64,000 nt of DNA from a virus (Duplodnaviria; Heunggongvirae; Uroviricota; Caudoviricetes), in the IMG/VR virus record IMGVR_UViG_2571042690_000019, one strand, 5' to 3'. Of this stretch, positions 7,895-54,420 are shown piece by piece (within the stretch, counting starts at the first letter, position 1; each line of letters opens with the position of its first letter). The position numbers and the translations under genes are program-made. Below the pieces are notes generated by a model. The model had not been told where the DNA came from. It searched no databases and worked only from the letters and a program-made list of their open reading frames with translations.

Positions 7895-8623
7895 ATGATG
7901 TCAGAAAAAGTTAAAGATAATCCGTCTATAAATGAAACAGAACTAAAATCATTTTCTGAAATAATAAAAGATAAAATATTTAACAAGGTTTTTGCATATG
8001 TTGTCATTTCTTTTCTAATTTTTAACTGGAAGGATATTTTAATTATATTAAAGTCAAAGGACGACATCCTATATACATTATCTATTGTTTCTGTTGGTGG
8101 TAATGTCCCGTTCATTGATAATTGGATTGTATCCCCGTGGGTTTATCACGTTGTAATCCCATTTATTTATGGAGTATTTGCATCTGTGTTAGCTCCTGTT
8201 CTCACACTGAAGATATCTAAGCTAACAAGTAAATTATACACTGAAATAAGATATTTAGATGAAGTTGCTGATTATGATAAAAGAATAGAATTGCAAAGAA
8301 AGAAAACAAAGTTAAATCAAGCAACCAATGACGCTAAATATTCAAAACAAATCTTAGATGAAAATGAAAATAAACTTAATGACTTGGTTACGAAACAGCG
8401 AGAAATTTGTGGCGCGATAAAACTATTGCATACTGATGTTGGCAGTATTATTGAACTATATAAAAATAAGGGGGTTAGCATTGAATCTCCGCAAGATTTA
8501 TGTGATTTTATAGTCGCTATAAAAAGCACATCATTCTATAATGATGACAAGCATTTTAATAAATTGGTGTCTGATATTTCCAGTTTGTTTGATAATACTG
8601 GAATTGATCTTTCAAAAAAATGA
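7895..8623 (+). CDS. AT-rich membrane protein with C-terminal coiled coil (unknown function)
   Basis: 242 aa; three hydrophobic segments then a Lys/Asn-rich coiled-coil tail; local GC far below the rest of the window. Confidence 0.55.
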   Translation: MMSEKVKDNPSINETELKSFSEIIKDKIFNKVFAYVVISFLIFNWKDILIILKSKDDILYTLSIVSVGGNVPFIDNWIVSPWVYHVVIPFIYGVFASVLAPVLTLKISKLTSKLYTEIRYLDEVADYDKRIELQRKKTKLNQATNDAKYSKQILDENENKLNDLVTKQREICGAIKLLHTDVGSIIELYKNKGVSIESPQDLCDFIVAIKSTSFYNDDKHFNKLVSDISSLFDNTGIDLSKK

Positions 8624-12767: not shown

Positions 12768-12826
12768 CGTGCGGATAATCCGATTATTTGGCAGTTAAAT
12801 CCCCGGCGTCGCCGGGGATGCAGCAT

Positions 12827-14005
12827 TTAACTAACAATCCAGTCCATAGCAATAACATCCTCTGGAGCTAAATCAATAGCATGGATTTTCCCGTCACGGA
12901 TGGTGCGCCAGTGCTTTCGTGATCCACCTTCGGGCCACACCCATATACCTTCAGGCCAGGAAGAACGACGACACACTGTTGCGTATCCAGTCCTGATCTT
13001 CTCTCTGACGGTATGTAGTGACAGATTATCCTTTGGGCTTTCAGGCACAGGATGGTGGATTGCCTGAAACATCCCCATCTTTGGATGATACCAGCGTTTA
13101 TTGCGTGGTTCTGCCTCCGACATCACCTGCTTAAAGGCTTTCCGGAAGGGGGCACGTGATCCACCTTCGGGCCACACCCATATACCTTCAGGCCAGGAAG
13201 AACGACGACACACTGTTGCGTATCCAGTCCTGATCTTCTCTCTGACGGTATGTAGTGACAGATTATCCTTTGGGCTTTCAGGCACAGGATGGTGGATTGC
13301 CTGAAACATCCCCATCTTTGGATGATACCAGCGTTTATTGCGTGGTTCTGCCTCCGACATCACCTGCTTAAAGGCTTTCCGGAAGGGGGCCAGGGCCACA
13401 ATGGAACGTCGCGCAAGCAAACCGTCGGGAGTTAAAAACTCATGCGTATCTGTGGGGATCCGGTAAGCGTTGACCAGGTTGCGGCATTTGGCTTCAGTCA
13501 GGCCGCATTTCGCCGCTAACTGGCGATAGCCAATGTAGCCTTCCGGAATATTGCCTTTCTTTATTTGCTCGACGGTTTCAGCGACTTTGGTCACTTGTGC
13601 CGATACTTCGGCTACCTGGGCATTAACGGCGTTGATCCGGCGTTCATGCTCAAGATGCATTTGCGCCATTTCAGCCAGAATTTCGGCTTTTGATTTTAAC
13701 TGTACCCGGGCATTCTCCAGTTCGCGCCAGCGGTCCACCAGCCGGGCGGTGAATTCGGGAGAGAGCTGCGCGACGACGACAATACTATCGCGCTTGCCTT
13801 GCTCGCCTTCGAAGAAATAGGCTTTTGTGTATTTATTAGGGCTAAGTGATTGATTATTCTCAACTGTAGCCAATGGCGTATGTTGGATAACTCCTTTAGC
13901 AACAAGTCTTTCGATGCTGCGTTTAACATCAGAGTGACGACTTCCCACCAGTTCCGCGATCTCAATGCTGGTCATTGTCGCTTTTTGAGAGATGGACAGA
14001 TTCAT
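12827..14005 (-). CDS. Rha/Ant-family antirepressor (immI-like module 1) with internal duplication and C-terminal fusion
   Basis: N-terminal Rha-type HTH (MTSIEIAELVGSRHSDVKRSIERL); paralog of 53204..53956; a 79-aa segment occurs twice in tandem; C-terminus matches the separate small ORF 53007..53207 of module 2. Confidence 0.65.
   Translation of the reverse strand: MNLSISQKATMTSIEIAELVGSRHSDVKRSIERLVAKGVIQHTPLATVENNQSLSPNKYTKAYFFEGEQGKRDSIVVVAQLSPEFTARLVDRWRELENARVQLKSKAEILAEMAQMHLEHERRINAVNAQVAEVSAQVTKVAETVEQIKKGNIPEGYIGYRQLAAKCGLTEAKCRNLVNAYRIPTDTHEFLTPDGLLARRSIVALAPFRKAFKQVMSEAEPRNKRWYHPKMGMFQAIHHPVPESPKDNLSLHTVREKIRTGYATVCRRSSWPEGIWVWPEGGSRAPFRKAFKQVMSEAEPRNKRWYHPKMGMFQAIHHPVPESPKDNLSLHTVREKIRTGYATVCRRSSWPEGIWVWPEGGSRKHWRTIRDGKIHAIDLAPEDVIAMDWIVS
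12918..13391. repeat. perfect tandem direct duplication, 2 x 237 bp, inside the antirepressor gene
   Basis: Sequence from about 12918 to 13154 repeats at 13155 to 13391 (gtgatccaccttcgggccacaccc...cttaaaggctttccggaaggggg); 237 is a multiple of 3, so in frame. Confidence 0.9.
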
Positions 14006-14220
14006 CAGTGCACCTCCACGCAGTTCATTGGCAGATTCCAGTAATTGAGGATCTCCATCGCATCAAGAGTGAAGCGAGCAGCAAAAATGCAGGGTTCTTC
14101 GGGAAGGTATGAGCGCGCCTCTGCTTCGGTAGCAGCCATTACGCAGATATAAAGGTGTTTTTGGCAGGAATAGAAACGCCAGATAAATTCAGAATGAGTT
14201 GGGGTAGGGATAGTAGCCAT
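14005..14220 (-). CDS. Icd-like small protein (immI module 1)
   Basis: 71 aa directly upstream of the antirepressor; paralog of 53911..54135 (shared EFIWRF..LQKH...AATE.EARS); size and position match P1 icd from memory. Confidence 0.45.
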   Translation of the reverse strand: MATIPTPTHSEFIWRFYSCQKHLYICVMAATEAEARSYLPEEPCIFAARFTLDAMEILNYWNLPMNCVEVH

Positions 14221-14224
14221 ATTG

Positions 14225-14400
14225 GCAGCCTCCTTTGACTAAGTTAAGGAGCTACCGCGTGAGGTTCCAATCTCAATGGCGGTAGCACTGACTGGGTTGG
14301 AACTACCGGCGTCAAAGGGAACCGGCCTGCCTTTCGGCAGCCCAGCCAGCACTACCATTGATCTCTGAGCTAAACGCTAAGTATGGCTGTGCGATGGCAT
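14225..14400 (-). ncRNA. candidate c4-like antisense RNA / structured leader (immI module 1)
   Basis: Non-coding stretch with nested hairpins (gctaccgc...gcggtagc; ggcctgcc-tttc-ggcagcc) and GGTTCCAA / TTGGAAC complementary heptamers. Coordinates approximate. Confidence 0.25.
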
Positions 14401-14404
14401 GACA

Positions 14405-14427
14405 CAAAAAAAGACGCGTTCGGCGTC
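14405..14427 (-). terminator. rho-independent terminator (minus strand)
   Basis: Minus-strand RNA gacgccgaacgcgtc followed by U7. Confidence 0.5.
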
Positions 14428-14469
14428 TGTGTCGCCTTTGACATTATCCGGGGTTCCAATCCCGGCACC

Positions 14470-14486
14470 CGTTTTTCTAAGGTGCC
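14470..14486. promoter_or_regulatory. C1-operator-like variant upstream of immI module 1
   Basis: ccgtttttctaaggtgc, TTTTCTAAGG variant of the recurring core. Confidence 0.3.
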
Positions 14487-17313: not shown

Positions 17314-17720
17314 AGAAGATGATTTTTGTCGCGGCATTGTTGGTGAATATCCAACAAGTGCATGCTTCAGCAGCTATTGTAGCCTCTACCGCCGCGACTA
17401 CGGCTGCTGTAGCTGCTGCGAACTCTGCGAATATCGCAAACCAACAGGCACAGCGTGCTGCTAATGCATCAGCCAGCGTTCACTCAATCACCATTAAGAG
17501 CAGTAAGCAAAATCTGGGATTCATAACGTGCGGCACGCGTTCTAATGAAGCTGTAGGTTCACTTGGATGTACGGTATATGGGGGTAGTGAGAATAGAGAA
17601 ATTCCATGGAAAACGTGGCCCGGATACGTTCTTGGCTCGAAGCTCCCGGCCAGTTATGAAGTAAACGCCGTATCGTTTGATCACTATAACGGCGTGGCAA
17701 CGGTCTATTTTGCATATTGA
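17310..17720 (+). CDS. small secreted protein
   Basis: 136 aa with signal peptide and Ala/Thr-rich repeat. Confidence 0.45.
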   Translation: MKKMIFVAALLVNIQQVHASAAIVASTAATTAAVAAANSANIANQQAQRAANASASVHSITIKSSKQNLGFITCGTRSNEAVGSLGCTVYGGSENREIPWKTWPGYVLGSKLPASYEVNAVSFDHYNGVATVYFAY

Positions 17721-30032: not shown

Positions 30033-30473
30033 TCACTCCACAACAAACCAGTCACAGGCCAGCAGGTCGCCAACTGAAGGCACCCACGGAACAACTACAC
30101 CTTGTGCATTTTTTAAGGCGAAATAAGCACCATACGGAACGAGGTCGCCGGGGAAATATCCCTTAATGGCTTCCATTCGTGCCGGGTACTGTCCTTCAGG
30201 AACCAGCCAGCAGAATTGGTTTTCGCCGTTCCACCCGCGTCGAGCAACTTTCTTGCCTTCCTTCAGCCACATCAGCGCGTCTGAAAAGTCGGCTGCTTCA
30301 AGGTCGATTTCTTCTTGCTGGGTGGTGATGCCACCAGCAGAAATAGTTACGCTCCCGGTAAGATTAATCATCACGCCGTTGTCATCCGTAATGATGACCG
30401 TGGTTCCATTTTTTTTGTGAGCTTTGTATTTGGGACGGAACTTAAAAAGCTCTTTCGTTGCCATGTTATTCAT
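30033..30473 (-). CDS. DUF2829-like (Tad2-like) protein with N-terminal extension
   Basis: 146 aa; DALMWLKEGKKVARRGWNGENQFCWLVPEG resembles the DUF2829 signature from memory; DUF2829 is the fold of the Thoeris anti-defense protein Tad2. Confidence 0.4.
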   Translation of the reverse strand: MNNMATKELFKFRPKYKAHKKNGTTVIITDDNGVMINLTGSVTISAGGITTQQEEIDLEAADFSDALMWLKEGKKVARRGWNGENQFCWLVPEGQYPARMEAIKGYFPGDLVPYGAYFALKNAQGVVVPWVPSVGDLLACDWFVVE

Positions 30474-33292: not shown

Positions 33293-34330
33293 ATGAGTAA
33301 GAAGTCGATCGAGAAAGAGTACAAACGGTTCCTGCAAACCGCTGAACGGTGGAAAGAGCTGGTGGTCGCAAACTCTGTTTTCCATGATACCAGTTATGCT
33401 GGCGAGGAATTCCGCCATGTTGCATTAACGCATGACCAAAACATATTAGAAGAAGCTGAAAAATGTCTTGCTGAATGGAAAGCCTTCGTTGACATGTGCC
33501 GCGATGCCGACGGCAAAGCGTCGAACATTGTTGAGTCTGTATATTCTCCGATCCCATTCATCATTGAGGACACCAATCAAAGCACGCATGTCGTTGTGCA
33601 AAGCGCTACAACAACACGTACATTTACACGTGAACAATTGCTAAAAAAATACGACAAAATCATAAAGAAAAGCCTTAAAAATAGGGTTTTTTCTCAAATC
33701 GTAGGTGATCTTGAAGAAGAACAGCGCTTCTTTGAAGCTGAGCCTGAAGGCGAGATCTACCGGGCGCGTAAAGAGGCATATACAGATGTTGTGCTGACAA
33801 CAAACATCGAAGGCAGCAATGCCCTTTCTCGCTTTAGAGTTGGCGCACATGGTGCATTGGTTTTCGCAAGACTACCGAAGACAACGATCCCCGTTGTCAA
33901 TAATGTTGGTGAACGCCGGAGCATTACAATTTATTCTGGCGTCGAATCGGTACCTTGCAGCCTTCTCGGCGATTTTAACTTATATCGTGTTCGTGACCTG
34001 GAAAAACACCAGCCAAGCTATGTTGCGAAGTCGTACATCTTAAGGAACATCGATATTCGCAATGAAAGCCTTAAGCAGAAATCCGCTAAGATGCTGGAGG
34101 ATGCCGATCCGGCTATTCGCCATATCATTGAGCGTAAGATACGTACATCACGTGAAGCAATGGCAAGGCTGGATAAAATGGATCTGGAATTGTTAGACGT
34201 AATGATGGCCTCTGGAGACGACCTGACCGGCATTAAACTGAATGAAGCTCGTAAAAAATACGGCAAAGCAATCGAAGAACGTTACGGATACACATTCCCC
34301 CAAACGCAGTACGCCGCGAAGCTCTGGTAA
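33293..34330 (+). CDS. hypothetical protein; candidate primary repressor (C1-like) by position only
   Basis: 345-aa ORF with an operator in its own promoter, divergent from cre/lox and convergent with pacB, as c1 is in P1. No sequence-level recognition. Confidence 0.3.
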   Translation: MSKKSIEKEYKRFLQTAERWKELVVANSVFHDTSYAGEEFRHVALTHDQNILEEAEKCLAEWKAFVDMCRDADGKASNIVESVYSPIPFIIEDTNQSTHVVVQSATTTRTFTREQLLKKYDKIIKKSLKNRVFSQIVGDLEEEQRFFEAEPEGEIYRARKEAYTDVVLTTNIEGSNALSRFRVGAHGALVFARLPKTTIPVVNNVGERRSITIYSGVESVPCSLLGDFNLYRVRDLEKHQPSYVAKSYILRNIDIRNESLKQKSAKMLEDADPAIRHIIERKIRTSREAMARLDKMDLELLDVMMASGDDLTGIKLNEARKKYGKAIEERYGYTFPQTQYAAKLW

Positions 34331-37728: not shown

Positions 37729-38120
37729 TACCAGCGAGACAAACGAACAACATGTTTCACTTTTGCGATCCACTGTCCGCGATAACTATTGATTACGGCC
37801 TGTGCCAGCTTCAAATTGGCTTCAAAATCAGCCTTACTACCATCAGACTCCACCAGCATTCCTCCATCTATTTCTGGTAAACATAGATAATCCTGCTCAA
37901 CCTGCAGCGGCATTGATGGCTCTCTGAATGGGGTTACTTGCTCTGCTTTCCAGCGAAATCTAACCCTTATCCCCCTGGTGGTCATTACTAGATAGCCTGT
38001 TATAGTGCTTTTATGGCCCACATCAGTACGCGTGGCATTGCATGACACGATCTTACAGTTAGCGATAGACCACTCCATATTGGTGGCCTGTTGAGTGCTT
38101 AATTTGGTAGTCCCGTACAT
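37728..38120 (-). CDS. hypothetical protein
   Basis: 130-aa ORF; start abuts upstream stop. Confidence 0.4.
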   Translation of the reverse strand: MYGTTKLSTQQATNMEWSIANCKIVSCNATRTDVGHKSTITGYLVMTTRGIRVRFRWKAEQVTPFREPSMPLQVEQDYLCLPEIDGGMLVESDGSKADFEANLKLAQAVINSYRGQWIAKVKHVVRLSRW

Positions 38121-38695
38121 CAGAAAGCCTCCCAGTCAGTCGCGATAATATCCACACCAGTTGCAAACCAGTCTGTCTGCGCCTGTAAATCCCCATTCAT
38201 CATTACCAGGCGAGGCATCACCATCACATCGCACCCTTCCACAATATCGAATGCCTCTTCCGGCAAGAATTCGAAGAGCTTTTCTTTGCTGCCAATACTG
38301 CCACGGAACATCGATATATAGCTCCCTTTGGGCCATGATGTCCGCCGGGCATCAAGCCCTTTCATCATCCAGTAAAAAGCCGAGGAAAAAGGGATATTCT
38401 TTTTGCCAATGATTACATTATTCGCTTCTGTGTACTTCAGGAACTTAACTAACCTTACCATTGACTCGGATAACGCAACGTATGGCTCATGATTGATTGC
38501 TGACACGCTTACACCGTGCAATCCAACGCTTACCACTGTCATATCGCCGCTCTGTGCGGTTTCGATATTGACGCCTTTGCGAACTAATGAGGCGTAAAGT
38601 TCCTCTCGCTTTTGGGTCCAGCGTTCCCGCTTCCCTATGAAGTCACTCAAAATGAGATCTTCTTCTGCATATGCGTTATCGTTCGCCATTAACAT
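38120..38695 (-). CDS. hypothetical protein, possibly with DUF2829-like segment
   Basis: 191 aa; AFYWMMKGLDARRTSWPKGSYISM loosely resembles the motif in 30033..30473. Confidence 0.4.
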   Translation of the reverse strand: MLMANDNAYAEEDLILSDFIGKRERWTQKREELYASLVRKGVNIETAQSGDMTVVSVGLHGVSVSAINHEPYVALSESMVRLVKFLKYTEANNVIIGKKNIPFSSAFYWMMKGLDARRTSWPKGSYISMFRGSIGSKEKLFEFLPEEAFDIVEGCDVMVMPRLVMMNGDLQAQTDWFATGVDIIATDWEAF

Positions 38696-45500: not shown

Positions 45501-48500
45501 TTAGGCCGCATCGGCGATTATTTTACGCAGTTCATCTACCGAGTAACGCGTAGATACCATCCATGCAGGACGGTCAAAGTTCACATCAGCAACCGGGTTT
45601 GCTTCAAAATTCCAGAAACGTCCGCCAATCTTCTTAATCGCGTCTTTGGCGTTCCGTATTGTCGAGGAACCTGGTTGGTCGGCAATGAGATAAACCGCGC
45701 CAACGTCCTCGCTGACGCTCCACCAGCGCCCGCGAACACGCGCCTTAGCGCGAATCGGCTTATCATTAACCACAATGATATAGTCATCATTCGCCGCTTC
45801 ATCAGCTCTGGCTTCAGCCACTGCCGCCTGCTCTTCTCTTTTGCTTTCAGCCTGCTCAAGCCTTTCCGCGATCTCTGATTCAGTGGCCCCGCCGTTTTTC
45901 AGCGATACATAGTCCTGCCACGTTGCCGATTTGAGCGTATCCGGCAACTCATTCACATAGTCGCCGTCTTTCAACTCACGGGCGCGGCGGGTAGCCATTT
46001 CTACCAGGCGATTAACAGAAACAGCATCAGCAAAATCGTCCTTACTAATGTGTTTTTCATCAAATGCATTGATGACAGCCCCCACCTTAATCCACTGTGC
46101 TGCCGGTGATTCCAGGGGGTTATCAGCCTGAACAATGGCGAGTTTCGCTCCATCTACCCCATTATTCGCCAGCTGTTCCAATGCCGCCCATCCATCTGCA
46201 TCACTGAGTGATTTATATTGCTCAAACAATGCATCGCGCCAGGCCACCAGCGCAGAACGTGTTTTTTCGATCTTCGCCTTAATTTTCGCGATCTTGACCT
46301 GATTAAACATCCGTTCAATATCATCGATATTGCTAAAGGCTTTCATCCTGCCCTGGAATAAACGGTATGCCAGCACGGTCCTCCAGAATGATTCCAGACC
46401 TTCTCCGGACGGTTTGCGGAACAAGCTAAGAATATCTTCAGAAGTGACTTTATTAAGCGAACGACCTGACAGACCACGCCCAGCCATCCAGTTTTCGAAC
46501 TCATGGGCAACATCATCCATCGTTGCCTGTGCGCCCCATGCCTGCATTCCCTGGGTGTAATCATACCCATACAATGCCTGGAGGAATCCCTCGCCGTCCA
46601 CGATATTCAGCGGGTTATCACTGGCTTGTATTTTTGCCACTTCACGCTTCAGCGCCTCGTCGTTGCCATCAGGATATATCCATCGCTCAGGTGCTATATC
46701 CGATGCTCGCCCGATTTTTTGGCCTATCACGCCATCATAGGCCGATGACAGCGCGATCTGACCATCATCTGTGCGATATGCCCAGTATTTAATAGCTGAC
46801 CCACCGCCCCATGCATTACCAGGTTTACCAGCAATAACATTCATTACCCCATTGCGAATAGCATCATAGAACTGATCGCGAGTAAGTATTGTTGATAGCT
46901 GGTGGCACTGAACACCACGCGCAGCCGTTGCGCGCGATTCAGCTACCCCCTCTTCAAAAGTTACCGCTTCAATCACAGAGTCAAACGGCAATGTAACGAT
47001 TGACCCCGGTGCTCGAGCGTAACGACTTGCTCTATCCAGCCAGGCGATACGGCAGAGGTATTGTGCTTTTTCACCGTCAATTTTTTCCACCCGGACAATC
47101 GCTGTTGTTTCGCGATCATCAATGACTGCACGGTAATAACTACCTTTATGCAACAGGATATTCTTGTCAGTGCGCATATATTCCTGTGGGTTCTGAATAA
47201 CATCGATACTGATATCCAGCACACCAGACTTAATAGCGCGCTCCACATCACCACGAGAGCGTTTCATTATGGTATCCGCGTCTTTTGCCCTGGTGATCGC
47301 AAACCGCAGCACCCGCGCACGTTTTCTGTAGCTACTCAACTGCTCAAGCGCGTATTTTTGCCCATTCCTGTTCGTACCCGCTTTTATCAGGTCGTCAAGA
47401 TTGCGCTGGTAATACTCTATCTGTTCCATCGCGCTTTTCAGTTCTGTCTCCATCATGCCGATATCTTTTCCGGCGGCGTTTGCCGCTTTCAGGTAGATAT
47501 CGAGAGCATTGTTGGCCTCGCGCTGTGCTTTCAGTTTCAGACGTTCTTCACGCTCTTGCGCCTGGCGAGCCATGATTGCGCGGCGTTCTTCCGGGTTTGC
47601 CGCCAGCATAATGGCGCGTTCATCAGCATCATCCGCATCACCATTGGCGATCTCTGACATGTCGGATGTCATCACCATCTTGATCCAGTCTTTCTTACGT
47701 TTCAGCGTATCCAGACGGAAGTCGTCGAATGTGCCTTTGCCACAATAGTAGTGAACATTGACCTTTTCTTGCGGTGAACCTACGCGCGCACCGCGCCCAT
47801 TTCGTTGGTCGATACTGGCTGGTGTCCAGGGTAGTGTCAGGTGGTGGATATCGGTTGTCCCGATGTGCAGGTTAATACCTACTTCAGCCTTCTTGTTACA
47901 GATTATGATGCGCGTGCGACCTTCGTTATAGTCGGCGGCAATACCTTCCATGCCCTCAAGGCCAGCATCATTTTTAGCGGAGAGATAATCCTCATATTGG
48001 GCAAGTTTGCTGTAGTAGGTTTCCCATGTCCCTTCTTTGTATTCACCGTTTTTGTTTGGAGTAGGTTCGGTCGGCTTATTCACCTTCTTCAGCTTGATGC
48101 CACCAGCCTGGCTAACTGTCGTCGCATTGATAATGCCAATCTCCTGCTCCGGCATTTGCAGTGCACTGGCGATAATACGGCGCAGCTTCTGGTGCTGGGC
48201 TTTTTCATCAATAAAGACGATCTGCTTACCGTTCTTCAGACCTTCACGAAGATTTTCGATCAGCGCGGCATACTTCGGCGGGATGGGGTGCGACACCTGC
48301 TGCATATCAATGCCGGCAGCCGCAATGGCCTTCAGTATTTCAGCTTCCAGTTCAATGCTGGCACGTATTTCAACATGCGTCGGATGTTCACTAAAAGCGG
48401 TCTTCACTACCTTGCTGGTACGCGTACTGACCAGCCCGCCAGCGCCGTCTTCCTCGGCCTCATCAACATCATCTGCCACTTTACCGCCAGCTACTTTTGG

Positions 48501-51500
48501 CAAGGCATCAGCAATAGCTTTTACCTGGTCTGCAAGCTCAACGGGGAACTGGAATGTAATCGCACTGGCATACAGATCCGGGTCTATAGCAACCTTATCC
48601 ATGTCACGGATGATGGAGAAGATGAAATCATCCGGTTTGTCGTTAGTGATATGCCCGTTTTCATCGACTGTCAGCTCATCATTGCGACTTAACTCCTGAG
48701 CACGCTTACGAAGCTCTTCATAAGCAGTCTCCTGCTCCCCTGTCATCGGGATCTGCAAGGTGTTCTCGATGATGTCGGGAATTTTAACCGTCGCTCCGAC
48801 ATCTGCAGCAGTCTTCAGAGTGGTCCAACGATGGAAAATACCACGCAGGCCGTCAAGGTTCTGGAAGCCCACCAGCCCCTGCTTCTCTTCCACTTCCCCG
48901 GAAATTTTCTGGACCTGAACTGTGGCTGTTTTGCCAAACACACGAACGAAATCATCAGGCGTAATGATGCCCATACGCATCCACTCTTCCTGCGGAATGA
49001 CAGTAGACAGCATGTTGAAGGCATCAATCGGACTGTTCACCAGCGGTGTTGCCGTCAGCATGACTACACCACGCCCGTTGTTGCGTTTCATCATGTACGC
49101 AGCTTTTACAGCCATGTCGCGGGCCATCTTGGATACTGCCGGGTTAGGCAAATATGCCAGTTGTCCCGCTTCACGCCCGGCATTAAAGGAGTTGCGGTAA
49201 TTATGCCCCTCGTCGGCAATCACGCTATCGAAGTTCATATCCTCAAAGTACGGGATATTCTGCTTCTTCGTTGTACCGGTATTCGCGGCCTGATCCTTAA
49301 TCTTGTTCTTCTTCTGCGCATCACGGTGTTTACCGGACGCCAGGTCAAGACGCCCCATTTCCACAGCATTAAAGACAGCTTGCTGTGAGTTCTCCTCGAT
49401 GGTTTTTTCTCGTAGCGGGATAGACGCGAATTGTTCTTTTGTCATGATGACCGTTCGCCAATTTGACGACGGGATCATGTTCATACGCTGAACGATAACG
49501 GCGCTGGCGGACTCTTTCACAACATTTCTGGTAAGAGGCTGCCCGTTACTGTCGAGGCGTGGTTCGCCATTTTCATCAAGCACCGGCGCGGTCAGAATAT
49601 TTCCGCTGTCATCACGAACTTCATCCAAACCGATAAACATCATATTGGCGAAGGCATCAGCACTGTAGAAACTCTGTGCCTCGTGATACCAGTTCTGATA
49701 AACCGCCTTCGGAACAACAATACACGTGCGTTTAGTGCGACCTGTTTCGAAGTTATACGCCTCAAGCGCAAGCGCGGTCGTGGTTTTACCCAGCCCGGTA
49801 CCAAATCCCATGATGCCGCGCCCATCTTCTGACAAGCGCCGAACTTCTTCATTCTGATAAGTAAGAGGAATGCGCTTTCCACTAAGCCCTTCCAGGCCAA
49901 GCGGTGCGTCAGAATGCGTGAACGGAATGAAACCATTGAATGCGTCGTTATACTCGCGGGCTATCTGATCAGCCTGCGGGTGAGTGCGTAACCAGTCGTT
50001 AAAACTAACTTCCAGTTGAGCAATTTTATCCAGGTACTCGTTAGCGTTCTGCCCACGCGGTTTAACACCGTTCAGGTAGTTTTCTAACTGGTTCAGGAAG
50101 CCGTCTTTATTGTTGGCCTTCTTGAACTCATTCCCGTTTTTGCCGTTTACGGTTCGTAGCTGATAGCCGGTAAATACACCGTCCTTACCTTCGTAATCGT
50201 CCGGAGATACCAGAATGCCATCGACGACCTTCAGATCAGGTTCAGTGTACTTAAACTCGTCATAGCCCTGCTCTGCCAGGAACTCTTTTATCAAGCGGCG
50301 ATCCAGCCAGCGGGCATTCAGATTAACGGTGACTTTATTTAGTGGCGTGAAAATACGTTTCTCTTCGATTTTCGCCAACTGACGCTCAAAGTTCGCTTTC
50401 TGCTCACCTGTTGACGCATCACGCCAGCCCATCAGCAATGCTGTTTTGGTTGCAATATCGCCGCTGGTGGCGCGGTCCATCGGCAGCAGGCAGCCATACC
50501 CATCAATAGCGATATCATCAAATTTCGCCAGGTATTCAAGGGCCGCGTCGTCGTCCTCTGGCAGTTCACCAGCAAACGCCTCACGAAAGTCTCCCAGCGT
50601 TATAGGATTAAGGGCTACATCACTGAAAAGATGTGCTATCACTTGTTCAGGACGTGTAAAGTCAATACCGGCAGCACCATCCGTTACATCAAGTCGCCCT
50701 GCCAGAAGGTCAGAAGTGGAACCATCCTGTTTCACATTGCCAGTGAACGTCATCCAGTTTTTAGCGCCAGCTTCAGCAAGCCCATTCAGCTTAATGGCGT
50801 GCGGTGGTCCATACTTCGCAACTTCTGCTGCCGCCAGGCGGGATGCATCTGCCAGTTTGTCATCAACGTTCACACCCAGGTTACGCAAATCAAGTGCCTT
50901 GTTGATCAACTGACCTATCAGCGCACCGCGCATAACGCGCTCCCTGTCTTTTTCTCGCTGCTTGCCAGCAAAGCGAATCATTGCTGCCACTTCATCACTG
51001 ACAACCGATGGATAGTCGGACGCGATCGCCGATATCTGGTCCCATGACAAAGCCAGAATCCCGTTTGTTGACTGGAACGCGATCTGCAGATCGCCAAACG
51101 TCGAAACACCATATCGACTTACATCAAGCGCGGAGGATTTGGTTGTCGTGTCCTTAACCCATTTCAGACCATCAAACTCATGCCAGATACCGCCTACAAG
51201 GCGTTTATCGCCCACTTTCGCGCCCTGCCATGCCTGAGTAGTTACGCCGAGCAAATCCCAATTGATGCGACTATCAAAGCGACGAGATAGCGCGGTTTTC
51301 ATCGACTCATTGGATACACGACCGTCTTTTTTCACCACCAAGGTATTGCGGAAGCTGGTACGTTCCATGTCGCCGTAAACAAATCGCTTCCCTTCGGTTG
51401 TAAACCATTTTCCTTTGAGGAAGGTATCCCAAAGGACGTTTGCCGATTTGAGTGTTGAATCATCCGTGTCGGGGATCATCTCCAGGAAGGTTTCCGGGTG

Positions 51501-52337
51501 TTTACGCAATACCCATACGTCCACCACGGTATCTGTACCGGATTCGCTGAACGTACCAGAAGGCATACGATGTGCGCCCAAAAATTCCGCTTTACGGCTG
51601 ACTTTATCGCGCAATTTTTTATATTTCGCACCATCGGTCATGCCATTCGGCACCACCAATACGATAAGCCCACCAGGTTTAACCTTGTCGATCGTGCGCA
51701 GCACAAAGTAATTGCCAACGTTCTTCTCGTTTGCATATGCCGGATCAAGCCCGGCGACACCGGAACGCCCTTCACCAAACGGTACGTTACCAACAGCGTG
51801 ATCATACATTGCGTCTTTCGCCGCCAGCGCCTCAAACGCCCCGATATTCACATCGTCTTCCGGGTGCAAAAGCTGGTTTATTCGACCGGAAATCTGAGAC
51901 AGTTCGGCGCTGGTCATTATCATGCCCTGCCGTTTTGTCTCCTGGAAAATACCTGTGCCCGCTGATGGTTCCAGTACGTGCCCGCCATCAATACCGTAGT
52001 CAGCAAACAGATCCCATATACCTTCAGCCATAAACTGTGGCGTGTAGTATTCGTATTGGCTGCCCTCACCATCTGTCAGGCCGCCTTCACCGGTATACCC
52101 GGCAAGAATCTGACGTTGTTCGTCAGTTAATTTCGCCCCATCGAAGCCGGGCGGAAGGGAATTAAGAAGATTTACTGCGGCATTATTTGCTGCCCGGCGT
52201 GTTTTCTGAATACTGACGCCATCGGCTTTCCTGACGCCAAAGGTCGCAACAGCACGTAATTTATGCAACCGACTAACAATTTCAATCAGTTCGCCTAAGC
52301 TGGAGGCTTCACTGATTGAATGAAGTAGTTTGTCCAA
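45501..52337 (-). CDS. darB: giant DarB-like protein: N-terminal adenine-MTase-like domain plus SF2 helicase
   Basis: 2278 aa (P1 DarB about 2255 from memory); N-terminal MTase-like motif (HAVGNVPFG); helicase Walker A GFGTGLGKTTTALALEAY and DEGH box IADEGHNYRN. Confidence 0.6.
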   Translation of the reverse strand: MDKLLHSISEASSLGELIEIVSRLHKLRAVATFGVRKADGVSIQKTRRAANNAAVNLLNSLPPGFDGAKLTDEQRQILAGYTGEGGLTDGEGSQYEYYTPQFMAEGIWDLFADYGIDGGHVLEPSAGTGIFQETKRQGMIMTSAELSQISGRINQLLHPEDDVNIGAFEALAAKDAMYDHAVGNVPFGEGRSGVAGLDPAYANEKNVGNYFVLRTIDKVKPGGLIVLVVPNGMTDGAKYKKLRDKVSRKAEFLGAHRMPSGTFSESGTDTVVDVWVLRKHPETFLEMIPDTDDSTLKSANVLWDTFLKGKWFTTEGKRFVYGDMERTSFRNTLVVKKDGRVSNESMKTALSRRFDSRINWDLLGVTTQAWQGAKVGDKRLVGGIWHEFDGLKWVKDTTTKSSALDVSRYGVSTFGDLQIAFQSTNGILALSWDQISAIASDYPSVVSDEVAAMIRFAGKQREKDRERVMRGALIGQLINKALDLRNLGVNVDDKLADASRLAAAEVAKYGPPHAIKLNGLAEAGAKNWMTFTGNVKQDGSTSDLLAGRLDVTDGAAGIDFTRPEQVIAHLFSDVALNPITLGDFREAFAGELPEDDDAALEYLAKFDDIAIDGYGCLLPMDRATSGDIATKTALLMGWRDASTGEQKANFERQLAKIEEKRIFTPLNKVTVNLNARWLDRRLIKEFLAEQGYDEFKYTEPDLKVVDGILVSPDDYEGKDGVFTGYQLRTVNGKNGNEFKKANNKDGFLNQLENYLNGVKPRGQNANEYLDKIAQLEVSFNDWLRTHPQADQIAREYNDAFNGFIPFTHSDAPLGLEGLSGKRIPLTYQNEEVRRLSEDGRGIMGFGTGLGKTTTALALEAYNFETGRTKRTCIVVPKAVYQNWYHEAQSFYSADAFANMMFIGLDEVRDDSGNILTAPVLDENGEPRLDSNGQPLTRNVVKESASAVIVQRMNMIPSSNWRTVIMTKEQFASIPLREKTIEENSQQAVFNAVEMGRLDLASGKHRDAQKKNKIKDQAANTGTTKKQNIPYFEDMNFDSVIADEGHNYRNSFNAGREAGQLAYLPNPAVSKMARDMAVKAAYMMKRNNGRGVVMLTATPLVNSPIDAFNMLSTVIPQEEWMRMGIITPDDFVRVFGKTATVQVQKISGEVEEKQGLVGFQNLDGLRGIFHRWTTLKTAADVGATVKIPDIIENTLQIPMTGEQETAYEELRKRAQELSRNDELTVDENGHITNDKPDDFIFSIIRDMDKVAIDPDLYASAITFQFPVELADQVKAIADALPKVAGGKVADDVDEAEEDGAGGLVSTRTSKVVKTAFSEHPTHVEIRASIELEAEILKAIAAAGIDMQQVSHPIPPKYAALIENLREGLKNGKQIVFIDEKAQHQKLRRIIASALQMPEQEIGIINATTVSQAGGIKLKKVNKPTEPTPNKNGEYKEGTWETYYSKLAQYEDYLSAKNDAGLEGMEGIAADYNEGRTRIIICNKKAEVGINLHIGTTDIHHLTLPWTPASIDQRNGRGARVGSPQEKVNVHYYCGKGTFDDFRLDTLKRKKDWIKMVMTSDMSEIANGDADDADERAIMLAANPEERRAIMARQAQEREERLKLKAQREANNALDIYLKAANAAGKDIGMMETELKSAMEQIEYYQRNLDDLIKAGTNRNGQKYALEQLSSYRKRARVLRFAITRAKDADTIMKRSRGDVERAIKSGVLDISIDVIQNPQEYMRTDKNILLHKGSYYRAVIDDRETTAIVRVEKIDGEKAQYLCRIAWLDRASRYARAPGSIVTLPFDSVIEAVTFEEGVAESRATAARGVQCHQLSTILTRDQFYDAIRNGVMNVIAGKPGNAWGGGSAIKYWAYRTDDGQIALSSAYDGVIGQKIGRASDIAPERWIYPDGNDEALKREVAKIQASDNPLNIVDGEGFLQALYGYDYTQGMQAWGAQATMDDVAHEFENWMAGRGLSGRSLNKVTSEDILSLFRKPSGEGLESFWRTVLAYRLFQGRMKAFSNIDDIERMFNQVKIAKIKAKIEKTRSALVAWRDALFEQYKSLSDADGWAALEQLANNGVDGAKLAIVQADNPLESPAAQWIKVGAVINAFDEKHISKDDFADAVSVNRLVEMATRRARELKDGDYVNELPDTLKSATWQDYVSLKNGGATESEIAERLEQAESKREEQAAVAEARADEAANDDYIIVVNDKPIRAKARVRGRWWSVSEDVGAVYLIADQPGSSTIRNAKDAIKKIGGRFWNFEANPVADVNFDRPAWMVSTRYSVDELRKIIADAA

Positions 52338-53006: not shown

Positions 53007-53207
53007 TCAAGTCACGATCCAATCATTACCGACTATATCAGCCGTCGATAAATCAACTTCCCGGATCTGGAGTCCATTAATACAAAACCATCCGGTAGTA
53101 GAGTAATTATCAGGCCAGGCCCATACACCAACACTCCATGCTTTACGGCGGCACACTTCAGCCTGTCCTTCCCTGATTTTTTTTACCGCCTGCATGATGT
53201 CCATCAC
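53007..53207 (-). CDS. small protein downstream of antirepressor 2
   Basis: 66 aa; homologous to the C-terminal segment fused onto the module-1 antirepressor. Confidence 0.4.
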   Translation of the reverse strand: MMDIMQAVKKIREGQAEVCRRKAWSVGVWAWPDNYSTTGWFCINGLQIREVDLSTADIVGNDWIVT

Positions 53208-53956
53208 TCACCTCCCCAACCGATCACCTGGAATTGCCCCATTTTGGGGTGATACCAGCGTTTTCCTCGGTGTTCAGCCTCCGACATCATCCGGTTAAAA
53301 GAATTCATGAAGGGAGATAAGGCCACGATGGAACGACGCGACAATACCCCCTCTGGAGTTAAAAACTCATGTGTATCGGTGGGAATCCGGAAAGCGTTAA
53401 CCAGGTTGCGGCATTTGGCTTCGGTCAGGCCACATTTCGCCGCCAGCTGGCGGTAGCCAATGTAACCTTCCGGCATATTGCCCTTCTTGATTTGCTCGAC
53501 GGTTTCAGCGACCTGGCTAACCTTTGACTCAACAGCATGAAGCCGCTTTTGCTGCTGAACTGCATTTGCAGCCATTGCGGCGATCATCTCTATTTCGGTC
53601 AACGGCTGGCGTACTTGTTCTTCCAGTTCGCGCCAGCGGTCCACCAGCCGGGCAGTAAACTCAGGACAAAGCTGTGCGACTACAATGATACTGTCTCGTT
53701 TGCCTTGCTCGTCGCTAAATCGGAACACCTGAATTAATCGAGAACGCCCCATTACATCTATTTTTGGTTCATCCTCAATTTGAGGACGAACAATAACGCC
53801 GGATTCGGCTAATGTTTCAATGGTACGCTTCACATTGTCATGACGTTTTCCCACCAGCTCCGCGATCTCAATGCTGGTCATTGATGGCTTTTCAAGAATG
53901 CAGATATCCATCAGTGTGCCTCCGCAATGCCGGGATTGGTAATATTGCGATACCAA
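53204..53956 (-). CDS. Rha/Ant-family antirepressor (immI-like module 2)
   Basis: 250 aa; paralog of 12827..14005 (MTSIEIAELVGKRHDNVKRTIE, QLCPEFTARLVDRWRELE, YIGYRQLAAKCGLTEAKCRNLVNAFRIPTDTHEFLTP). Confidence 0.65.
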   Translation of the reverse strand: MVSQYYQSRHCGGTLMDICILEKPSMTSIEIAELVGKRHDNVKRTIETLAESGVIVRPQIEDEPKIDVMGRSRLIQVFRFSDEQGKRDSIIVVAQLCPEFTARLVDRWRELEEQVRQPLTEIEMIAAMAANAVQQQKRLHAVESKVSQVAETVEQIKKGNMPEGYIGYRQLAAKCGLTEAKCRNLVNAFRIPTDTHEFLTPEGVLSRRSIVALSPFMNSFNRMMSEAEHRGKRWYHPKMGQFQVIGWGGE

Positions 53957-54135
53957 GGATTAGTGTTTGGTTGTGGGGAAGTAGAGAAACGACCAGTAAG
54001 AACACCATGCTGATCAGGGATCAGAGAACGGGCTTCTTTTTCGGTTGCGGCAATTGCGAAGTGATCGCAGTGTTTTTGCAGGGAGTGGAAACGCCAGATG
54101 AATTCTGGACGTGAGCAAGGATTGGCATTAACCAT
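53911..54135 (-). CDS. Icd-like small protein (immI module 2)
   Basis: 74 aa, overlaps antirepressor start by 46 bp; paralog of 14005..14220. Confidence 0.45.
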   Translation of the reverse strand: MVNANPCSRPEFIWRFHSLQKHCDHFAIAATEKEARSLIPDQHGVLTGRFSTSPQPNTNPWYRNITNPGIAEAH

Positions 54136-54139
54136 AGTT

Positions 54140-54420
54140 ACGGCCTCACTAACAGGTTTAACAACCTGCTACCCGCTGTCAAACAGGTGGCAGGACGTGA
54201 CAGGGTTGACAGACTGGCGTTAGTGAAACCAGCAGGCCGAAGCCTCCCCATCACGCCCCACCATAATTCGGGCGTAACGTGGTTTACGGACACAAAAATA
54301 CCGCAATATCGGAAATCTGCGGTTGTCCGCACTAACATTCAGGCTGTCAAACCTGGTCGCAGAATTTGCTACGACGGCATGAATATAAGCCTGAAAACAT
54401 GGAAGATCAACTAAAAATTT
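54140..54420 (-). ncRNA. candidate c4-like antisense RNA / structured leader (immI module 2)
   Basis: Non-coding stretch with TTGACAG and complementary CTGTCAA heptamers at 54177, 54206 and 54344. Coordinates approximate. Confidence 0.25.

Follow-up and report, generated by a model that had tools for sequence, protein, structure and literature searches.

The immI operon of phage P1, in which c4, icd and ant follow one another, is among the closest described counterparts of the locus considered here. This arrangement recurs twice in the window, i.e., the whole stretch of 64,000 nucleotides that was analysed, with a C4 RNA upstream and an icd-like gene overlapping the start of the antirepressor gene in both cases. 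The likeness extends to a gene for a P1/P7-type C1 repressor (PF27008) in the same element, which can be placed at window positions 33293-34330 through the loci of its relatives. However, the antirepressor is of the Rha type (PF09669) and carries an extra small C-terminal domain, unlike Ant1/Ant2 of P1, and is known here from its sequence. The Ant protein of phage D6 (orf82, YP_009914759.1) has 313 aa, is encoded in the same gene order (pmgF-like, ant, icd-like, and ref-like), and shows a DNA identity of about 90%. The difference from D6 and from all other relatives lies in a 236-nt stretch of the antirepressor gene, which they have once and which appears twice in the window. A further precedent is found in scaffolded draft genomes, where false duplications flank gaps, a gap that separates both copies on a single scaffold being regarded as their hallmark (bioRxiv 10.1101/2021.04.09.438957).

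The best DNA matches to the window are non-mobilizable plasmids of about 90 kb from E. coli, Salmonella, and Shigella, together with phage D6, and the window is assigned to the D6-like, P1-type phage-plasmids. The first of its two immunity modules lies on the minus strand and contains an antirepressor ORF (12827-14005) that encodes, as written, 392 aa, while its homologues have 313 aa. The ORF matches PHROG 63, "anti-repressor Ant" (E 4.6e-62), its function being assigned by family only. The predicted protein consists of a Rha-type N-terminal DNA-binding domain (PF09669), a helical middle part, and a small, beta-rich C-terminal domain that comprises the last ~65 residues (phrog_7385). On the same strand, an ORF of 71 aa taken from the ORF list (14005-14220), annotated in relatives as "host cell division inhibitor Icd-like", overlaps the start codon of the antirepressor with its end by one base (14005). 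This ORF is preceded by a C4 antisense RNA at 14275-14362 on the minus strand (Rfam RF01695, 77.1 bits, E 2.4e-13) and, upstream of C4, by a minus-strand leader at 14407-14485 that matches isrK (Rfam RF01394, 61.3 bits) and occupies the position of the c4-a1b1 target element in the second module.

The only tandem array in the whole 64-kb window is situated within this antirepressor ORF, at 12918-13390, with a period of 237, 2.0 copies, and 100% matches according to TRF. A repeat search and a base-by-base check resolve this array into 236 + 1 + 236 bases, with a first copy at 12918-13153, a second copy at 13155-13390 that is also delimited by comparison with the relatives, and a single joint base at 13154. 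Both copies are identical at 236 of 236 positions and lie 237 apart. Each possible register of 237 nt contains at least one mismatch, and the joint base, an A in the window, differs from both position 12917 (T) and position 13391 (C). The earlier note had described two perfect 237-bp units arranged head to tail; identical copies are indeed adjacent, but their real layout includes the additional base between them. Its reading of a 79-aa segment doubled in frame inside the antirepressor is correct for the 392-aa ORF as written. Read on the coding strand, the joint base occupies the third position of a CGT codon, where any base would specify arginine. Since 236 + 1 gives 237, a multiple of three, and CGN encodes arginine, the ORF stays open and a protein of 392 aa is called. 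A perfect adjacent repeat of 236 nt cannot have originated by chance.

An exact look-up of the 392-aa protein leads to one contig only, AYNG01000012.1 of the assembly GCA_000506465.2 (E. coli LAU-EC7), whose positions 441117-505116, reversed, constitute the window. In a comparison covering 21,179 bases, the record departs from the window at position 13154 only, with an N in place of the A. This sole N in 21,179 bases of the record falls exactly between the two copies. The A that the window shows at 13154 is a stand-in for this N and not real data. Its introduction during the preparation of the window concealed what had been the sole visible indication of a scaffold join. As for the origin of the record, the LAU-EC7 genome (AYNG00000000) was obtained from MiSeq 2x250 reads with the A5 pipeline and comprises "101 contigs contained in 77 scaffolds" (PMC3931373). 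In this pipeline, IDBA contigs are generated and then "scaffolded and extended using SSPACE" (PMC3441570).

Other features of the same record deserve mention. The circular phage-plasmid, of roughly 90 kb, is contained in a "contig" of 542,286 bases and appears to reach towards the end of it. This suggests that AYNG01000012.1 is a scaffold joining the plasmid to other DNA, an integrated copy of the phage-plasmid being a less likely alternative. At window position 17586, one extra A (TATGGGGGT[A]GTGAG) is present with respect to the otherwise identical plasmid JBAICA010000050.1, and it shifts the frame of a small ORF, which has 117 aa in that plasmid and 136 aa in the window. A second hidden N was considered at this position and rejected, as the record has a real A there, and the extra base reflects a genuine indel or else an error of sequencing beside a run of G.

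Comparison with relatives yields a single copy throughout. Without positions 13154-13390, the window agrees at 8,312 of 8,312 bases with the loci of four independent assemblies (L017, L018, L019, and L023), each of which encodes a 313-aa protein, and the contig of L017 is also identical to window positions 14448-36065 save for one 1-base indel. A query of 1001 bases across the repeat was compared with complete E. coli genomes, PLSDB plasmids, and phages, and the matches listed, about 100 plasmids of E. coli, Salmonella, and Shigella together with phage D6, span 761-765 bases, which corresponds to one copy. The antirepressor genes of these relatives are annotated as 313-aa proteins. The best 120 of 4,138 protein homologues all have 314 aa or fewer, mostly 313, and in all ten contexts around the neighbouring 103-aa gene the distance between the flanking genes is 942 nt. 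The joint from copy to copy was sought as ...GGAAGGGGGC followed, within 0-4 free bases, by CGTGATCCACC..., and no match was obtained in collections of genome, metagenome, and viral contigs, whereas the normal single-copy boundary is present in 19 viral contigs. Likewise, none of the 27 fetched related loci that carry the 236-nt unit has it in tandem. The comparison with other isolates suggested in the earlier note has, in this way, shown a single copy in every relative examined and no variation in copy number. Judged by alignment, the true gene of the first module most likely measures 942 nt and encodes 313 aa.

The position of the N exactly at the joint, the scaffolded nature of the assembly, and the single copy in independent assemblies that are otherwise identical lead to the interpretation that the duplication is, with high probability, an assembly artefact in the form of an overlap between contigs that was glued by the scaffolder without being merged. 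Two neighbouring contigs would both have extended into one 236-base stretch within the antirepressor gene, their ends overlapping there. Copy 1 (12918-13153) would represent the end of the contig containing the 3' part of the gene and everything leftward of it, whereas copy 2 (13155-13390) would represent the start of the adjacent contig. The scaffolder would have ordered both contigs by means of read pairs, estimated a negative gap, and left the overlap un-merged, base 13154 being presumably its single placeholder N between the two. SSPACE writes a single "n" where a negative gap is unresolved. A lone N would then not have been treated as a gap, and the scaffold would have been deposited as one "contig". 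This sequence of events resembles the false duplications described in scaffolded drafts in the presence of 100% identical copies on one scaffold, the gap character between them, their absence from independent assemblies of the same sequence, and the use of a pipeline that builds contigs and then scaffolds them. It differs from them in that the gap is a single N and the record looks like an uninterrupted contig, and also in that the reading frame happens to survive, which results in a plausible longer protein.

The earlier note had offered a very recent event and an assembly artefact as the two possible origins of the repeat, and the N at the joint, the scaffolding, and the identical single-copy assemblies favour the latter over the former. 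A genuine, very recent, and strain-specific tandem duplication of about 236-237 bp, in frame within the LAU-EC7 antirepressor, which the assembler could not traverse and marked with an N, is improbable. The repeat is present in the deposited record and the reading frame is kept, although a frame is retained by chance in one case out of three. Moreover, a genuine duplication close to the k-mer or read length might be expected to break a de Bruijn graph at a node, and one of about k-mer length could in principle also be written out as "U n U", where U is the unit. Nevertheless, no base is called at the joint and, hence, no junction sequence is defined, a single copy is present in the four assemblies, whose 8.3 kb are identical in all other respects, and no second example occurs among about 100 complete plasmids, the best 120 of 4,138 homologous proteins, and three contig collections. 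If it were true, such a duplication, specific to strain LAU-EC7, would alter or inactivate the antirepressor of its D6-like phage-plasmid.

The earlier note had proposed a recA-dependent change in copy number that would turn the antirepressor on and off or adjust its dose. All that speaks for such a reversible switch is the general behaviour of perfect tandem repeats, which homologous recombination can lengthen or shorten, and all the evidence against a real duplication applies to it as well. Furthermore, relatives would be expected to share a switch that the phage makes use of, but no examined relative has two copies, and with the extra block the protein would contain, in its interior, an orphan half of the C-terminal domain, which is no obvious regulated state. 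The proposal is unsupported, the joint and the second copy being found in no other isolate, phage, plasmid, or metagenome contig examined, and it is given hardly any credence. A similarly negligible chance is attributed to the N being an ordinary ambiguous call, or a product of window or database preparation, whose position is coincidental. Ns do arise in other ways, but nothing beyond this favours such a coincidence, and the probability that the sole N in 21,179 bases falls at the one position separating the copies is roughly 1 in 20,000. With an un-merged contig overlap as the preferred explanation, the most likely state of affairs is that nothing at 12918-13390 works as a switch and that the true gene encodes the antirepressor of 313 aa that is usual in D6-like phage-plasmids.

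A possible cause for the interruption of the contigs at this place is provided by paralogues. Other plasmids, namely AR_0128 and ETEC1732, contain a second antirepressor gene, of the ORF6N type in the former and of the Rha type in the latter, in which the 236-nt unit occurs at 100% identity. Two paralogue-type alleles (L015 and L040) have in common an exact block at 12903-13405, longer than the unit by 15 bases at both ends. Were a paralogue of this kind present in LAU-EC7, either contig would extend over 251 bases of the shared block, suggestively close to the length of one MiSeq read. The idea that the unit ends coincide with the ends of a block shared with a paralogue was rejected, as no exact-match block ends precisely at 12918 or 13390 in any fetched locus. 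The mosaic structure of these genes was compared using L015:1410-2408 and L016:1410-2351 against window positions 12797-13698. In other phage-plasmids, two thirds of the antirepressor on its C-terminal side, with the unit in them, are joined to a different N-terminal domain of the ORF6N type, or occur in a second Rha-type copy. The antirepressors of these phage-plasmids are mosaics in which the N-terminal DNA-binding domain has been swapped.

The second immunity module, also on the minus strand, provides the reference for the internal organization of the protein. Its antirepressor body, delimited by alignment to the protein of the first module and by the ORF list, occupies 53204-53911 and comprises 235 aa when the start is placed at the ATG of the relatives. 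It aligns to residues 1-237 of the 313-aa protein with 61% identity and ends where the protein of the first module continues into a linker. A separate gene of 66 aa follows at 53007-53207 (phrog_7385, E 1.8e-49; weak match to PF11195), overlaps the upstream stop by 4 nt, and shows 40% identity to the normal 313-aa protein over residues 249-313 of the latter (E 3e-18). These two alignments bear out the proposal that the repeated unit spans the point where the antirepressor body is fused to a segment encoded by a gene of its own in the second module. The icd-like ORF of this module (53911-54135, ORF list) shares one base with the ORF at 53204-53911, and the two genes are probably translationally coupled in both modules. 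Upstream are a C4 antisense RNA at 54183-54268 (Rfam RF01695, 68.8 bits) and a c4 a1/b1 target element at 54336-54388 (Rfam RF03163, 54.4 bits). The C4 target regions of the two immunity modules have diverged, with an isrK match in the first and a c4-a1b1 match in the second. The region between the modules contains, on the minus strand, an ORF of 2,278 aa (45501-52337) with matches to SNF2/helicase families (PF00176, weak, and PF28555), which is conserved in relatives.

The domain of about 65 aa (phrog_7385), which is fused in the first module (12827-13070) and encoded by a separate, overlapping gene in the second (53007-53207), has few homologues: for the 66-aa ORF, three were retrieved by a word-indexed search and seven by an exhaustive search, one of these being spurious. 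A described domain that may be compared with it is Tad2, a Thoeris anti-defence protein (PF11195, DUF2829, Tad2-like). The 66-aa ORF matches practically the whole profile (positions 1-72 of 73, E 0.034), and its AlphaFold model, with a pLDDT of 73, shows one helix and five strands. However, the score of 15.1 bits lies below the Pfam gathering threshold of 25, a profile search of PDB sequences did not find Tad2, and no significant Foldseek match to the 66-aa model was obtained, the Tad2 of SPO1 (8smg_A) ranking third with E 1.2 and a TM of 0.40. Weak matches to PF11195 occur in five of eight family members (best E 6.2e-5). The AlphaFold model of the full-length protein was left out because its pLDDT is below 50 for residues 217-313. 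The resemblance of the C-terminal domain to Tad2, as judged from predicted models, is only a lead. Two more ORFs on the minus strand, at 30033-30473 (146 aa) and 38120-38695 (191 aa), have precomputed PF11195 matches in relatives that are 99.7-100% identical, and the element may encode several members of this anti-defence-like family.

Taken at face value, the window does contain the repeat, which almost certainly does not correspond to any real biological feature. Within a deposited "contig", one N may be all that marks a scaffold join, the overlapping ends of which mimic a perfect in-frame duplication, and once such an N has been replaced by a real base, no visible trace of the join is left. 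It would be wrong to take the 392-aa protein, which is on record in a protein collection, for a variant antirepressor. The underlying biology is ordinary for this group of phages and includes a Rha-type antirepressor of 313 aa, control by a C4 RNA, and a small C-terminal domain, which forms part of the antirepressor in one immunity module and is encoded separately in the other.
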